From an uncultured Holophaga sp. (lineage in GTDB: Bacteria > Acidobacteriota > Holophagae > Holophagales > Holophagaceae), in contig OY761614.1 in assembly GCA_963664825.1 (NCBI GenBank), positions 3,264,001 through 3,328,000 on the forward strand: a stretch of 64,000 bases of DNA, given 5' to 3'. How positions within the stretch are numbered: position 1 is the stretch's first letter; every line of letters starts with the position of its first letter. Shown one piece after another: positions 191-62,634 of the stretch. Made by a program: the position numbers and the translations under genes. The notes below the pieces were generated by a model, which saw only the letters and a list, made by a program, of their open reading frames with translations, was not told where the DNA came from and searched no databases.

Positions 191-212
191 GGGCCGGGCG
201 ATCCAGGGGAGG

Positions 213-281
213 CGGATTCCCCTCGCCCTTGGGGGCTCGGGCCGCGGCATTCGTTCCGGCCGTGTCTCGACGCTCTCGCGT
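213..281. repeat. Truncated copy of tRNA-Gln-linked repeat
   Basis: 213-262 is identical (50 bp) to 2154-2203; 264-281 matches 2214-2231 with one mismatch. Confidence 0.9.
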
Positions 282-394: not shown

Positions 395-1819
395 TCAGCG
401 TGTCGTGAAAGTCACCTGGGTGGGCCTCAGAGGGCGATCCTGGGTGTCCATGAATCCGATGCACTGGGGATGGTTCACCCAGAAGGAGTAGGTGGTGGCC
501 GGTTTTAGGCGGATCGCGAAGGTAAGTGTGCGCTTTCCCGAATCCCAGGTACCCTTATCCACAATGTCGAGTTCCCCCGTGTTCACCATGGCCATGCCCT
601 TGCCCATGGGGCGATCAGAGCGGATGCGCAGTGCAGTGGTTGTCGGATCCACGTCCTTGGCGCTGTTAGCAGGCTCGATGCTCAGCAATTGTGGACCCTC
701 GGCATAGGCCTTCTCCTGGCGGGCCTGTTCTGCGGAGTCGCTGGCCTCACGGAGTTCCTTGGCCCTGGTAGCCCAGCCCTTGAATGCAGCGACAAGACGA
801 GGCGTGAAAGCTTCTAACGTTGGAAAGCGGTCCCGACTGGAGGTGTATTCACCAAGTAGCTCAGCCAGGGGACTGACCCAGTAGAAGCCGCGCTGGGCGT
901 GCATCTGTTGTTCGCTTTCGGCGATCTTTGTGTCGCTGTGTTCCTGGAAGTAGCGGATGGTAAAGGCACGGACCATGGACTCCTTGAGGGCGATTGGGCC
1001 ATCCCCATAGGCCTGTTGGCGCATGCGCTCGATGACCGGAGCATTCAAACTCTCGCCAGCATCCCGGAGTTCGGTGATGTGTCGCTCCACCCAGGGATTA
1101 GCGAAGCTGTGTAGGAACTCGTGGACCAAGATGGGCAGGCCGCGAGCGTCGAAGCTAGGCATTCGCCCATTTTCCGCTTGATTCGTGCCCATGAAGGCAT
1201 ACAGATCCCGACCGCCACCAGCATTCGGGGCGGCGGGCCCATAGTTGCCACCACCGTTCAGGGGTGCCACACAGAGAATGAAAGTATCCCGGTCCCGGGG
1301 ACCAAAGGTGCGAGTAAACCAGTTTCGATCCAGGGGCTTGAGTAGAGCCTCCCGGCAATCTCGAGTCAGCCGATCGTAGAAGGGCGCCTGGGCTGCGAAG
1401 AAGGCCTCAGCCTTGGCGTCCTTGGCGAAGGCGGTCATCAAGACTAGGAAGCGGCGGGCCGTCTCCGGCTTCCAGCGAGTGTCCAAAGCGCTCTCCATGG
1501 TCTTGGCATCGCAGATGGGCTCGAAATTTACGGCATCTTTCGTCAGTATGGCTAGGTGTGGAATGGCATCGTAGCCGACCTCGGGGCGAAGTTCTCGGGC
1601 CATGGCCACAGCTGGATGATCCTTGAATGGACCGAAATGAGCGTCCACAGCGCAGTTGTAATCCGCAATAGCCCCATGAGTGTATTCCTGGAAATTCGCC
1701 AGTCTAAATACAATGGACATCAACTCGAAGCGGCGGTCCACTCGCACCTCAAGGAAGTCAGGCGCGGCTTGGGGAATGGCCACTAGACCTGGGAGGAAAA
1801 GCATGGGAATGAATGGCAT
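395..1819 (-). CDS. DUF4932-like exported protein, putative HExxH zinc metallopeptidase with C-terminal Ig-like domain
   Basis: VDRRFELMSIVFRLA start, HEFLHSF motif, downstream E in LKESMVRA, C-terminal PAN.AKDVDP Ig-like domain; hydrophobic N-terminus; GGAG precedes ATG at 1819 (ORF open to 1897). Confidence 0.75.
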   Translation of the reverse strand: MPFIPMLFLPGLVAIPQAAPDFLEVRVDRRFELMSIVFRLANFQEYTHGAIADYNCAVDAHFGPFKDHPAVAMARELRPEVGYDAIPHLAILTKDAVNFEPICDAKTMESALDTRWKPETARRFLVLMTAFAKDAKAEAFFAAQAPFYDRLTRDCREALLKPLDRNWFTRTFGPRDRDTFILCVAPLNGGGNYGPAAPNAGGGRDLYAFMGTNQAENGRMPSFDARGLPILVHEFLHSFANPWVERHITELRDAGESLNAPVIERMRQQAYGDGPIALKESMVRAFTIRYFQEHSDTKIAESEQQMHAQRGFYWVSPLAELLGEYTSSRDRFPTLEAFTPRLVAAFKGWATRAKELREASDSAEQARQEKAYAEGPQLLSIEPANSAKDVDPTTTALRIRSDRPMGKGMAMVNTGELDIVDKGTWDSGKRTLTFAIRLKPATTYSFWVNHPQCIGFMDTQDRPLRPTQVTFTTR

Positions 1820-1922
1820 GTGAGCTCTCCGGGGAGCGGTGGACATCAGGGTCTCTTGGATCGAATTATGGTTGGTGCCAGACTCGCGTGGCTTCATTTC
1901 AATTGGCTGCGTCGACGCTAAG

Positions 1923-1968: not shown

Positions 1969-2115
1969 GCGATTAAGACGGGGTGCTCGGCACCTGTTCG
2001 GGAATTCGTTTCCAGCCTGTCACTGTTTTTTACGATCCATTTTTCTAAAGGTTAGAGGCCCCGGATTCCCAGTCAATTCTCGATGCAGGGAGGTCGGGCC
2101 CTCACAAACCCCAGG

Positions 2116-2311
2116 CTGCGGCCCCCACGGGGCCGCAGCCTCTGTTGGGAAGACGGATTCCCCTCGCCCTTGGGGGCTCGGGCCGCGGCATTCGTTCCGG
2201 CCGGCGCTGATCCGTCTCAACGCTCTCGCGTCTCGACGGGCGCCTACCGCCGGGCGAATGCCGATTCGAATCCTTCCTCCCGATAAAACTGCGGCCCCCT
2301 CGGGGCCGCAG
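2116..2311 (-). repeat. tRNA-linked structured repeat: terminator, antisense tRNA segment, long hairpin, degenerate tRNA 3' end, second terminator
   Basis: CTGCGGCCCC..GGGGCCGCAG hairpin occurs twice (about 2116-2140 and 2289-2311); 2265-2281 is inverted relative to 2322-2338. Confidence 0.85.
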
Positions 2312-2315
2312 AATC

Positions 2316-2390
2316 TGGTTGGGGAGGAAGGATTCGAACCCTCGATACGCAGGATCAAAACCTGCTGCCTTACCACTTGGCTACTCCCCA
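2316..2390 (-). tRNA. tRNA-Gln (TTG)
   Basis: Reverse complement TGGGGAGTAGCCAAGTGGTAAGGCAGCAGGTTTTGATCCTGC...GGTTCGAATCCTTCCTCCCCAACCA folds as a cloverleaf with encoded CCA. Confidence 0.97.
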
Positions 2391-58937: not shown

Positions 58938-59714
58938 TCAGGCCAGATCGAGGCTCACGGGACAGTGATCGGAACCCATCACATCCGGATGGATCTCCAC
59001 GTGCTTGGCCCGTTCCAATAGACCGGCACTGATGAGGAAATGGTCGATCCTCCATCCGACGTTCTTGGCCCGGGCACCCCCTCGTTGGGTCCACCATGTA
59101 TAGAGACCGACCGTCTCGGGATTCCGTTCGCGGAGCACGTCATGCAGGCCCTCCGCCAGGTAGAGCCTGAAGTCCTCGCGCTCTTCAAGCGTGAACCCTG
59201 GGTTCAGATGATTGTCCTTGGGACGCGCCAGATCGATCTCTTCAGGTGCCACGTTCATGTCCCCGGCGAGGATCACCTGCTTTCCCTCGGCATGGAGCGC
59301 CTTCACGTGATCGGCCAGCTGCCTGGCAAAGGCCCGCTTGTAGTCGAGCCGCACCAGCCCCGTCGAAGCATTGGGAAAGTAGCCCCCAATGAAGACCAGA
59401 TCGCCTCGCAGACTCTGGACCACCCTGCCCTCCTGATCAAAGGCCTCGATGCCCAGGCCCGGGGCATGGGTGAAGCCCAGTTCCTTCCGACTGAGGGTCG
59501 CAGTCCCCGCATAGCCCTTCTTGCTGCGGGCCGGGAACCAGCAAACGTCATAGGCGCTCTCCAGCTGGTGGCGCACCCCCAGATCGATCTCCTCCCATTC
59601 GCAGCGGATCTCCTGGAGGGAGATCAGATCGGGATCGGCCCCCTCCAGCCAGTCCATGAAGCCCTTTCTCAGGGCCGCACGGAAACCGTTCACGTTCCAG
59701 GTATAGAGCTTCAC
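58938..59714 (-). CDS. xth: Exodeoxyribonuclease III
   Basis: TWNVNG.RA, LQE, GY.G, GD.N, YTWW, GWRID, SDHCP. Confidence 0.95.
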   Translation of the reverse strand: MKLYTWNVNGFRAALRKGFMDWLEGADPDLISLQEIRCEWEEIDLGVRHQLESAYDVCWFPARSKKGYAGTATLSRKELGFTHAPGLGIEAFDQEGRVVQSLRGDLVFIGGYFPNASTGLVRLDYKRAFARQLADHVKALHAEGKQVILAGDMNVAPEEIDLARPKDNHLNPGFTLEEREDFRLYLAEGLHDVLRERNPETVGLYTWWTQRGGARAKNVGWRIDHFLISAGLLERAKHVEIHPDVMGSDHCPVSLDLA

Positions 59715-60070
59715 AGCGACTCCACAAGACGTTCCCACATACGATGCGAGCGGACCCGCCACCATCCCATCAGAAACAGCACGGGCCAGCCCTTGAAGGT
59801 CGCCCGATGGATGAGCAGCAGGCGCTTGCCCTCAGGCCGCGCCTGGAAGAAACCCCGTTCCTCCACGCCAAGGCAGGGCCGCAGGACGTATTCGGCTTCG
59901 AAGGCCTCCAAATCCTGAAGGCGAACACGCACCTCCACGGCCTTCAGTCGGGGATGCCAACGCCCATAGGAACGTCCATCCGAGAGGACCCGAGCCACCG
60001 CCTCCAGGGGCGCATTGGTGTCCCGCACCAGTTCGAGAGACCAGACGGGGCGTTTCACGGCCTCGCCCAT
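59711..60070 (-). CDS. Small hypothetical protein, SRPBCC-like
   Basis: AP.E.V...L.D...Y.RW.P pattern; stop overlaps the xth start. Confidence 0.5.
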   Translation of the reverse strand: MGEAVKRPVWSLELVRDTNAPLEAVARVLSDGRSYGRWHPRLKAVEVRVRLQDLEAFEAEYVLRPCLGVEERGFFQARPEGKRLLLIHRATFKGWPVLFLMGWWRVRSHRMWERLVESL

Positions 60071-60094
60071 CCCGGGCAGGGCTTCCAGCCCATG

Positions 60095-60408
60095 TTCACC
60101 GGATGAAGCCCGGCTTCGCATCCGCTTCGCCCTCCGGGCTCAGACCAGGAAGGAAGAGTGGCGCATTACGGTATTTCGAGCCGCAGCACTGCACAGTTTG
60201 GGCTACGCCCAAGCCTGTGCCGCGCCACTCTACGCCATCAGCCTGTCGGCTGTCGGCTACTCGAAATGCACGATCCAGGTTCACCGGACCACGAAGCCCG
60301 GCTTCGCATCCGCTTCGCCCTCTGGGCTCAGACCAGGAAGGGCGAGACGAGGGCATGGATACAGGTTCCAAGCGGCATTCACCGGACCACGAAGCCCGGC
60401 TTCGCATC
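60095..60408. repeat. Three direct repeats of the metG 3' end
   Basis: Copies at 60095-60153, 60280-60341 and 60378-60408 (last is the coding end of metG). Confidence 0.95.
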
Positions 60409-62355
60409 TTCCGGGGGGGCGATGAGGTAGGGCTTGCTGGCGTTGTCACTGGCACAGAGCAGCATGCCGTGGCTCTCGATGCCCATCATGGCCCGGGGCG
60501 CCAGATTGGCCACGACGACGACGCGACGGCCCACCAGATCGGCGGGCGCGTAGGCTTCCTTGATGCCGCCCAAGATCGTGCGCTGCTCGAAGCCCAGGTC
60601 CACCTTCATCTTGATGAGCTTCTTGCTCTTGGGCACTTCCTCGGCCTCCAATATCAGCCCCACCCGCAGATCGGTCTTGGCGAAGGTGTCGTAATCGATA
60701 TTCTCCTTCACGGGAGGGAGGTCCAGAGGCTGGGGGGCGGCGGGCTGAGGGGCGGCTTCCGCGCGGATGGCTTCGATTTCGTTCATGGCAGTTTCCTTGT
60801 CGATGCGGGCGAAGAGAGGTTTGGGATCGGATACGGGGCCTGGGGCGGGGGCTTCCACATCGAGATCGGCGAAGCGCAGATCCATCACATGGCCCGTGAG
60901 ACCAAGGCTTTCCCAGAGCTGCTGACAGAGCTCAGGCATGACGGGCCCGGCCAGCAGAGCGGTCAGACGAAGGGCACGGTAGAGCTGGGCCAGGACCGTA
61001 TCGAGCTTCTGGGCATTGGCCTCGTCCTTGGCTAGTTTCCAGGGTTCGGCCTTCACGATGTAGCCGTCCAGATGGCGCAGGAAGGCCCACAGCCCATCCA
61101 GGGCGCCATTGAAATCATGCCTGGAGGCCCGCTCCAGGTACTGCGGCGCCGCCTGGCGCAGGAGTTCGCGCACCTCCGTATCCGCCGCGTCATACTGGAC
61201 GGGCTCCACCACCACACCCTTCCGGTAGCGCTGCAGCATGCTGATGCTGCGGCTCGCGAGATTGCCCAGGCCGTTGGCCAGGTCTGCGTTGAGCCGGTCG
61301 ATGAAAGCCTCGAAGGTGAAGGCGCGGTCGTGGCCGATATGCATATCGCGCAGGAGGAAGAAGCGCGCGGCGTCCGTGCCGAAGTGGAGCAGTTCCTTGG
61401 GACGCACGATATTGCCAAGGGACTTGCTCATCTTGGTCTCGCCCATGAGCCACCACCCGTGGGCCAGAATGGTCTTGGGCATCTGCGCGCAGATGCGATC
61501 GGGCAGTGCGCCCTTTAGGTCATCGCCCTCCTGGCGGTAGATGGCCATGAGGAAGGCGGGCCAATACACGGCATGGAAGCGGAGGATGTCCTTGCCCACC
61601 AACTGCACCGCCGGCGGCCAGTGGCCTTGTTTGGAGGCGCTGAGGTAGTTCAGCAGGGCGTCGAACCAGACGTATACCACGTGTTTCTCGTCCCCCGGCA
61701 CAGGGATGCCCCAGGTGATGGAGGTGCGACTGATGCTGAGGTCCTGAAGGTTGCCGCGCTCGCCGCCGGGCGACACGAATTGTTTGACTTCGTTGAGGCG
61801 GAAATCCGGCTGTACGAATTCGGGACACTTTTCATAAAGCTGGATGAGCCAATTTTCATAGGAGGAGAGGCGGAAAAAGTAGCTCTCTTCTTCCAGTTCC
61901 ACCAGCTGATGGGCCAGCCCTTGGGCCTGCATCTCCTTGGCTTGGATCTCCGTCACATAGGCTTCGTCCGATACACTGTAGAGGCCCTTGTAGGTGGCCT
62001 TGTAGATATCCCCCCTGGCCAGCAGCTCCGTGAAACGCGCCTGCACCGTGGCTTTGTGCGATGCGTGGGTGGTGCGCACGAAGTGATCCACCGTGAGGCC
62101 CATCTGCTTCCAGAGGTTTTCGAAGTTGGGTGCCACCTCGTCCACTAGCTGCTGGGGTGTGATGCCCCGGCTGGCCGCGGTCTTCTCGATCTTCTGTCCG
62201 TGCTCATCGGTCCCGGTGAGGAAGTAGACATCCTCGCCCAGCATCCGGTGATGGCGCGCCAGGGCATCCGCCATGACGGTCGTATAGGTATGACCGATAT
62301 GGGGTTTGTCATTCACGTAGTAGATGGGGGTAGTGACATAGAAAGGCTTGGACAC
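60379..62355 (-). CDS. metG: Methionine--tRNA ligase with C-terminal tRNA-binding OB domain
   Basis: YVTTPIYYVN..PHIGH, TGTDEHG, YVWFDAL.NY, GKDI, KMSKS, C-terminal EMAP/Trbp domain. Confidence 0.98.
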   Translation of the reverse strand: MSKPFYVTTPIYYVNDKPHIGHTYTTVMADALARHHRMLGEDVYFLTGTDEHGQKIEKTAASRGITPQQLVDEVAPNFENLWKQMGLTVDHFVRTTHASHKATVQARFTELLARGDIYKATYKGLYSVSDEAYVTEIQAKEMQAQGLAHQLVELEEESYFFRLSSYENWLIQLYEKCPEFVQPDFRLNEVKQFVSPGGERGNLQDLSISRTSITWGIPVPGDEKHVVYVWFDALLNYLSASKQGHWPPAVQLVGKDILRFHAVYWPAFLMAIYRQEGDDLKGALPDRICAQMPKTILAHGWWLMGETKMSKSLGNIVRPKELLHFGTDAARFFLLRDMHIGHDRAFTFEAFIDRLNADLANGLGNLASRSISMLQRYRKGVVVEPVQYDAADTEVRELLRQAAPQYLERASRHDFNGALDGLWAFLRHLDGYIVKAEPWKLAKDEANAQKLDTVLAQLYRALRLTALLAGPVMPELCQQLWESLGLTGHVMDLRFADLDVEAPAPGPVSDPKPLFARIDKETAMNEIEAIRAEAAPQPAAPQPLDLPPVKENIDYDTFAKTDLRVGLILEAEEVPKSKKLIKMKVDLGFEQRTILGGIKEAYAPADLVGRRVVVVANLAPRAMMGIESHGMLLCASDNASKPYLIAPPEDAKPGFVVR

Positions 62356-62634
62356 GAGGACTCCATGACCTTCCAGTCTACCGGAGGTCGCCAAGGCCAT
62401 CAGCTCCTGGGCAAGAAGAATATGGCCCCGAGGTTTCACGCGGGCAGGGCAGGCCTTGGAACTGAATTCGCCCGAGAGAAGAAGATGAACGGCCGTGACG
62501 AGGGGCTTCTGATGTCAGGTATTTCCTAGCCATCTTCTCCTGGCGTTGACGGTTCGGCCGACTTATATTGTGCATCCTCCCCCCAATCTGTGAAGCACCC
62601 GATGGCTCATGCCCCTCTTCCATGTGAGCTGTTT

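Follow-up and report, generated by a model that had tools for sequence, protein, structure and literature searches.

A hairpin-ended cassette of near-fixed length at gene ends in Holophagaceae genomes

The methionyl-tRNA synthetase gene (metG) of an uncultured Holophaga sp. carries at its 3' end a small non-autonomous cassette, which sits at a purine-rich RARRA core, supplies the working end of the gene and leaves the old end displaced behind a 21-nt hairpin (M). The locus lies in a 64,000-nt stretch of contig OY761614.1, the whole of which is referred to here as the window (Table 1). Read in gene direction, the order is gene end, filler, M (GGTCTGAGCCC-NNN-GGGCGAAG) and then a repeat of the last 11 codons of the gene, an arrangement that occurs twice, with periods of 98 and 188 nt; M is the right end of the cassette. 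A first-pass annotation of the window had reported copies of a short motif beside duplicated gene ends at two loci, metG and a tRNA-Gln gene, and all four copies are found at the places and gaps it gave, with the same orientation to the target gene in every case: on the + strand at 60127 and 60315, 4 nt from the metG 3'-end copies 60096-60122 and 60281-60310 (original 60379-60408), and at 223 and 2164, 3 nt from tRNA-Gln 3' fragments. The GCCC/GGGC mini-hairpin that it described does fold, if weakly when taken by itself (z +1.1). Pieces of the metG structure are present with zero differing letters in contigs of two other sequencing runs (runs with small word shares were left out as evidence), and the structure is therefore not an assembly error.

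Table 1. Features of the window at the metG and tRNA-Gln loci, together with two sets of cassette loci from other genomes
Feature	Position (or loci)	Strand	Remarks
metG ORF, methionyl-tRNA synthetase, target gene	60379..62439	-	PF09334, PF01588
Cassette 1, 98 nt	60314..60411	-	working metG end X' (60379-60411) + filler Y' + hairpin M
Hairpin motif M1	60313..60334	-	in gene direction GGTCTGAGCCC-AGA-GGGCGAAG
Cassette 2, 188 nt	60126..60313	-	metG end copy (60281-60313) + REP-like insertion + hairpin M2
REP-like long hairpin, multicopy, separate family, inside cassette 2	60163..60271	.	z -2.7 and -3.7
Hairpin motif M2	60125..60146	-	loop GGA
Third metG end copy, displaced	60096..60125	-	shorter by one codon
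Mini-ORF 1, 33 aa	60281..60382	-	GTG overlaps metG stop
Mini-ORF 2, 62 aa	60096..60284	-	open through REP-like insertion
Mini-ORF 3, 14 aa	60055..60099	-	stop overlaps GTG of next gene
START/polyketide-cyclase-like gene	59711..60058	-	coupled to exonuclease III-like gene (58938-59714)
tRNA-Gln(TTG), target of a different element	2316..2390	-	
tRNA-Gln unit	2161..2336	-	tRNA 3' end, terminator hairpin 2289-2311, inverted tRNA-end copy 2265-2281
tRNA-Gln unit, remainder	about 2186-2262; 2161-2182	-	long hairpin; end motif
tRNA-Gln 3' fragment, displaced, decayed	2113..2160	-	with terminator hairpin
Second end motif, long-hairpin remains, decayed tRNA 3' fragment	203..281	-	end motif 220-241
DUF4932 gene between the two tRNA-Gln end motifs	395-1897		ORF
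Non-homologous cassettes at hppD-like loci	L040, L046, L049, L051, L056, L060, L125, L229		
Cassette extension of a presumed rimP-like gene	L158, L044, L053, L054, L204, L222		

Within the second metG cassette a REP-like repeat has landed. It belongs to a hairpin family of 110-125 nt with five near-full copies elsewhere in this genome (G000:C1:65427, 1813186, 2405579, 2549033 and 2868745), about 14 copies in a single other genome of the genus (G004) and few in the rest, and no M was seen in the flanks of the five near-full copies. The long hairpin said to accompany the motif is thus present at both loci, but the two are different in kind, the one at metG being this separate repeat and the one at tRNA-Gln the body of the element itself. 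At this locus metG is joined to the next gene through mini-ORFs of 33, 62 and 14 codons, each with a four-base overlap with the stop before it. The gap that separates the next gene from the last metG copy holds a 41-nt insert (60055-60099) between two GTGAA repeats; the insert contains a small hairpin and a coupled ORF of 14 codons, and empty alleles lack it.

Within this genome the short motif is not rare (15 matches, against 6.4 expected from hexamer counts), and five of the 15 abut a duplication, three at 19-20/20 identity and the two tRNA ones at 14-15/20. A further match is a decayed unit, in frame within a gene that we take to be rimP-like, and nine are chance-like. The same genome has a third clean unit, of period 97 nt, at the end of a gene whose translation we take for that of a sigma-54 activator. 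The longer pattern TGAGCCC-N3/4-GGGCGAAG has 73 matches in 47 of the 133 family genomes (reversed control, 2), each genome with M having one to five copies; in a scan across GTDB there were 59 loci, of which 35 came from Holophagaceae-type or other Acidobacteriota, and a metagenome scan added 37 more. Once contexts lying less than about 100 nt from a locus end had been removed, 54 of 127 distinct contexts carried a duplication at near-fixed distance, defined as at least 17 of the 24 bases after M being repeated upstream, as against 2 of 621 control sites; these 54 units are drawn from roughly a dozen loci, in genomes related to one another, and are not independent. Outside the family, the GTDB, viral and metagenome scans revealed a duplication beside the motif in no context, and matches there are either coding (in genes that are presumably hflX-like) or Veillonella palindromes. 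In the latter (L076, L086, L087, L092, L216) the same hairpin forms the loop of a longer palindrome, with neither a duplication nor an enzyme nearby.

The 54 units measure 95 nt (25 units), 96 (12), 97 (9), 98 (7) or 100 (1), a near-fixed length of which the earlier annotation made no mention. The cassette, of about 96 nt and without a gene, consists of the gene-end copy and filler, together about 74 nt, followed by the 21-nt hairpin, and its left junction is an invariant A in the RARRA core in 54/54 units. GNA triloops are stable in DNA, and the loop is GCA, GAA or GGA in 34 of the 54; this, together with M being in sense at some loci and antisense at others, argues for a reading at the level of DNA. 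Targets number at least 12 unrelated genes, are taken at both 3' and 5' ends and are in many cases non-essential. By Pfam assignment, the 3'-end targets, with M in sense, are metG, UDG, YceI and metK, while the 5'-end targets, with M in antisense, are DUF486, DAHP synthase, MFS and DUF58; to these are added the sigma-54 activator, a gene that its translation leads us to call transaldolase, and two unnamed genes. The suggestion that 3' ends of essential genes are singled out finds no support here, given that 5' ends, in opposite orientation, are equally common and that DUF486, MFS, DUF58, YceI and UDG are among the targets. The gene body always lies to the left of the unit, whose first 12-69 nt complete the gene, the shortest homology (12 nt) being at the DAHP synthase and transaldolase-like starts; all that the targets have in common is about 5 bases. 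Filler is mostly at about 0.25-0.35 identity to local downstream DNA, tandem copies excepted, the between-locus control being 0.30, and it reaches 0.52 among genomes at one locus, both for UDG and for metG. Some filler is partly like the local DNA (L050, 0.57; L227, 0.64).

Translational coupling is also found at 5' ends: of the 20 units there in which the old ATG is retained, 18 (a raw count, without a chance control) have a mini-ORF that begins at the displaced start and stops between 14 nt before and 1 nt after the new start. Among 3'-end units a coupled mini-ORF is present in the frame tested in 2/19, both of them at metG. At operon junctions, cassettes that keep such coupling would presumably be favored.

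A second, sibling family shares the GGYC foot and the core of the M cassettes but has a hairpin of 29 nt. In this genome its core-to-foot spacer is 75, 75, 75, 75 and 72 nt (one of the five sites being at 16/24 identity, and one further site not fitting), to be compared with a spacer of 73-79 nt, mode 74, for M. In relatives the sibling spacer is 73-75 nt in 4/26 contexts, those having a duplication at that range; the other 22/26 sibling-hairpin contexts lack one at this distance, and many of them derive from other repeats. The spacer being constant while unit length follows the hairpin, these observations suggest one superfamily and a measurement made from the hairpin foot. Length exceptions are the rpsA units, of 128 nt, and one sibling unit of about 157 nt. 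At a set of hppD-like loci (Table 1), M cassettes without homology to their site lie inside a dead hppD-like 3' end, a copy that was made by another element and that the cassettes' own conserved start of about 20 nt does not match. Such cassettes suggest that a whole unit can land at a bare core. A pattern search for their source gene gave 13 matches, 8 of which are known cassette loci.

Several further observations were made along the way. In a number of genomes an old cassette has seemingly been absorbed in frame as a C-terminal extension of the presumed rimP-like gene. At L065:2900-3100 the left half derives from the UDG cassette and the right half from the DUF486 start, with the joint at M, either by a rearrangement through two cassettes or by misassembly, and at L033:2-1465 a uracil-DNA glycosylase gene contains an intein (LAGLIDADG domain) and ends in an M cassette. 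The present genome has about 10 other gene-end duplications with hairpin-rich inserts of 133-221 nt that belong to other families (near G000:C1 391740, 518176, 1321559, 1612988, 1958626, 2111442, 2187943, 2225571, 2568689 and 3087905), several of which end in a motif like GGAGACGGGNCCC. Also present is a probable long CRISPR-like array of about 112 repeats with a period of 61 nt.

The history of the cassettes is best read from alleles that lack them. Filled alleles make up 6/30 of the nearest orthologues for DUF486, 4/30 for UDG and 1/22 of the relatives for metG, the last being a homologous 98-nt unit in one same-genus genome (L005), with the other 21/22 family loci empty. In two close filled/empty pairs (L369 vs L370, L348 vs L362) the right copy agrees with the empty sister's allele from its first bases onward and continues into the empty sister's downstream DNA, whereas the left copy is foreign; what was inserted at the core is therefore the left copy, the filler and M. 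Differences between the two copies fall 27/18/71 by codon position over 446 codons in 46 units (8 of the 54 were dropped as tandem or frameless, and 3 misframed ones were kept), and this third-position excess indicates that both copies were working alleles, rather than a fresh duplication and its decaying twin. On gene trees, which rest on short alignments and have many weak forks, the filled state needs 6 changes for DUF486 and 4 for UDG, and a single filled clade is rejected for each (p-AU 1e-52 and 0.0015, respectively). Cassette identity drops with gene-body identity (0.98 to 0.95, 0.88 to 0.76, 0.85 to 0.60), a scaling that counts against long-range transfer. On these comparisons the distribution fits repeated gain and loss among close relatives. 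A crossover inside the homology had been suggested by the pair L005 vs L012 and drew no support from two closer filled/empty pairs.

Neither an enzyme nor an ORF-holding cassette was found in the family, GTDB, viral or metagenome scans, and the long-range gene-end repeats of this genome include no autonomous partner. The 47 proteins flanking or near cassettes at the loci scanned include no integrase or recombinase, the window ORFs scanned no integrase, and the 127 contexts no M unit with cargo or integrase; the linked tyrosine recombinase, HUH or GIY-YIG gene that the first reading of this DNA had anticipated stands beside none of the cassettes examined. The Y1 transposase domain PF01797 has no match in this genome and is present in 22 of the 133 family genomes, five of them among the 47 that are motif-positive, and no convincing M hairpin occurs in 30 Y1 loci. 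Small GIY-YIG genes are found across the family at about one per genome, with an M hairpin at 0/30 of their loci. The motif is on the G-rich strand at 14/21 loci, and at 4/4 in this genome, counts that do not establish the lagging-strand bias expected of HUH elements. Neither a circle nor an excision junction turned up in the assembled contigs.

We consider it somewhat probable that the hairpin is bound by a trans-acting enzyme, which would release the roughly 96-nt piece as a single strand or a small circle and place it at an RARRA core where the bases next in line can pair with the start of that piece. Such an account takes as observed the anatomy, the near-fixed length, the core, the filled and empty alleles, the host origin of the displaced copy and the coupled mini-ORFs, and would add to these the enzyme, the intermediate and the pairing. 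The enzyme would cut at the core behind the hairpin and again some 74-75 nt upstream of the hairpin foot, and the cassette would then move, single-stranded or circular, to an empty allele with which its own first 12-60 nt could pair, so that site choice would lie in the cassette itself. A locus-specific cassette would persist through repeated homing into, and loss from, the empty alleles of close relatives. Survival would be confined to cassettes near gene ends, the only places where 74 nt suffice to restore a gene. We put forward more tentatively, and with doubt outweighing conviction, a broader proposal: that M and its sibling form a superfamily of self-guided cassettes without an enzyme of their own, on each of which a trans enzyme recognizes the hairpin, takes a length of about 74-75 nt from the hairpin foot and places the piece at any site where, behind the 5-base core, the first 12-60 nt of the piece match. 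Cassettes of this sort would swap protein N- or C-termini between strains and be reprogrammed by the sequence they carry, and would thus amount to a natural DNA-guided, break-free editor of gene ends.

Three other accounts of the M units deserve weighing against trans mobilization. That they are what is left of the attachment sites of larger islands with a tyrosine or serine integrase, with the cargo deleted and the hairpin an arm or end site, would explain why a gene end is replaced and the old end displaced, this being the layout of gene-targeting integrative elements, and the tRNA-Gln locus does carry a 1.9-kb cargo unit with a DUF4932 gene; but cargo or integrase is present in 0/127 M contexts, deletions at a dozen unrelated genes would not all end up at 95-98 nt or give one spacer for two hairpin lengths, and the targets have only about 5 bases in common. 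We judge this origin unlikely. We regard as improbable the notion that staggered cuts let a tiny hairpin insert and duplicate about 74-78 nt of the target site, the whole unit then staying put under decay and selection. It offers a simple account of the fixed length, agrees with the filler that is partly like local DNA at L050 and L227, and may describe the birth of a new locus. It is at odds, however, with copy differences that concentrate at third positions, with filler that is for the most part unlike local DNA and alike at one locus (UDG and metG, against the between-locus control), with a displaced copy that agrees with the empty sister's present allele while the cassette is common to other lineages, with the foreign left copy in the two close filled/empty pairs, and with the cassettes in non-homologous sites at hppD-like loci. 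Passive spread by natural transformation or homologous recombination, with the units kept as regulatory or coupling modules whose hairpin acts in RNA, is in keeping with the patchy distribution, with the mini-ORF coupling in the window and at 5' ends, and with a divergence that follows the host lineage. Yet the orientation of M differs between 3' ends (sense) and 5' ends (antisense), so that no single RNA form is common to the cassettes, and homology is sometimes as short as 12 nt. Passive spread also leaves the core, the length and the appearance of cassettes at a dozen loci without explanation. We hold it to be quite improbable.

There is finally the question of whether metG and tRNA-Gln are units of one family with one signal, as had been proposed at the outset. 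The inner hairpins are near-identical and point the same way, and each of the outer stems is closed over two GA mismatches; what is shared is architecture only, namely a small GA-mismatch/GNA hairpin that abuts a copy. At the 27 of 30 orthologous tRNA-Gln loci that are readable (three were missed by the anchor and left out), 14 relatives have the element and 12 are empty, and not one of the 14 units has the M-type motif. Those units end instead in varied other hairpins and are often tandem (L165-L188), and the GAGCCC/GGGCGA form of the end occurs in this genome only. The tRNA-Gln unit is, moreover, about 165-200 nt long, includes a fold-back copy of its target that M cassettes lack, and has neither the GAGGYC foot nor the RARRA core. 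From these comparisons a single family seems very improbable indeed, and the tRNA-Gln units appear to be a separate fold-back element with a look-alike end. What stands of the proposal is a small non-autonomous element that regenerates a gene end, seen at metG, at the third locus of the same genome and at dozens in relatives, though not as one family with tRNA-Gln. An Rfam search returned two tRNAs as its sole matches. The inverted copy of the tRNA 3' end lies directly behind the terminator (in the unit at 2161-2336), as though it had come from fold-back synthesis. Cumulative GC skew reaches its maximum at about 3100 of the window (G000:C1:3267103), and the replication terminus region therefore probably adjoins the tRNA-Gln locus.

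If an enzyme does move the M cassettes in trans, it would be a programmable integrase whose guide is the cargo itself, and it would open an unrecognized route for the exchange of termini between housekeeping proteins and for the gain of mini-ORFs by operons. In the small mobile repeats known so far the body is conserved, and they either stay out of genes or disrupt them, whereas M cassettes have almost no conserved body, three quarters of each being a locus-specific replacement of a gene end. Their most unusual feature is a matter of length, the near-fixed distance from the hairpin that is common to two hairpin types. Given the small size of the cassette and its defined parts (hairpin, core, homology and spacer), trans mobilization is directly testable in cultured members of the family.

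Among known systems, integrative elements that target genes or tRNAs regenerate their site as attL and attR, supply a gene end of their own, displace the old one and may accrete in tandem. The M cassettes resemble them in that the gene end is regenerated and the old end displaced, as the filled/empty pairs show, and in tandem accretion; they differ in that no integrase or cargo was found in the contexts surveyed, in their size of about 96 nt, and in having more than a dozen unrelated targets for one hairpin family. The tRNA-Gln unit is closer to such elements than the M cassettes are. In GIY-YIG-linked palindromic repeats a small GIY-YIG gene is flanked by the repeat; the M hairpin, unlike these, is linked to none of the 30 small GIY-YIG loci. 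Insertion of restriction-modification genes with long target duplication, as set out in the accessible part of its description, involves long and variable duplications around a kilobase-scale gene set, the repeats listed there being near-identical (Furuta et al., 2010; PMC2853133). Here, too, an insert is flanked by long direct target repeats, without a mobility gene and with an empty allele in relatives; M units, unlike the insertions reported in those passages, are gene-less, have a conserved hairpin, measure 95-100 nt and carry copies that are different working alleles (PMC2853133).

The element IS608 has been engineered, according to the portion of the report available to us, so that added complementarity aims it at sites of 12-17 nt (Morero et al., 2018; PMC5934647), and M cassettes would do naturally what the engineered element does in this way. 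As far as that portion goes, a subterminal hairpin by the cut site and a short core are likenesses to the IS200/IS605 group with its TnpA, to which belong, on the insertion-sequence side, a circular intermediate and target choice by base pairing (PMC5934647). Unlike that group, the cassettes have no tnpA, only one conserved end (the right), a left end that resembles the target and a long target copy inside; Y1 genes are unlinked to them, and the strand count on the G-rich strand is the 14/21 given above. REP sequences and REPINs are small, non-autonomous hairpin DNA thought, in the sections available of two papers, to be moved in trans by RAYTs, as is proposed for M (PMC3116915; PMC3733652). 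M differs from them in having a single hairpin rather than an inverted doublet, 1-5 copies per genome, a position inside gene ends and a body that differs at each locus, in a genome without a RAYT/Y1 gene.

The MIRUs of mycobacteria have, in the accessible text, an ORF of their own and insert at start codons, where a mini-ORF with a -4 overlap keeps translation going (PMC12548453). Short repeats at gene boundaries and translation kept through such a mini-ORF are common ground with M (PMC12548453), for which coupling of this type comprises the window's chain of three -4 overlaps, 18/20 5'-end units and 2/19 3'-end units. Compared with MIRUs as that text presents them, M cassettes have a filler identity of 0.30 between targets, a junction 12-69 nt inside the gene at either end, and a locus-specific copy. 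A published description of the M element was not found in the part of the literature searched. Since it departs in a defining feature from each of the systems compared, the M cassette is, to judge by its sequence, regarded here as new by its anatomy.
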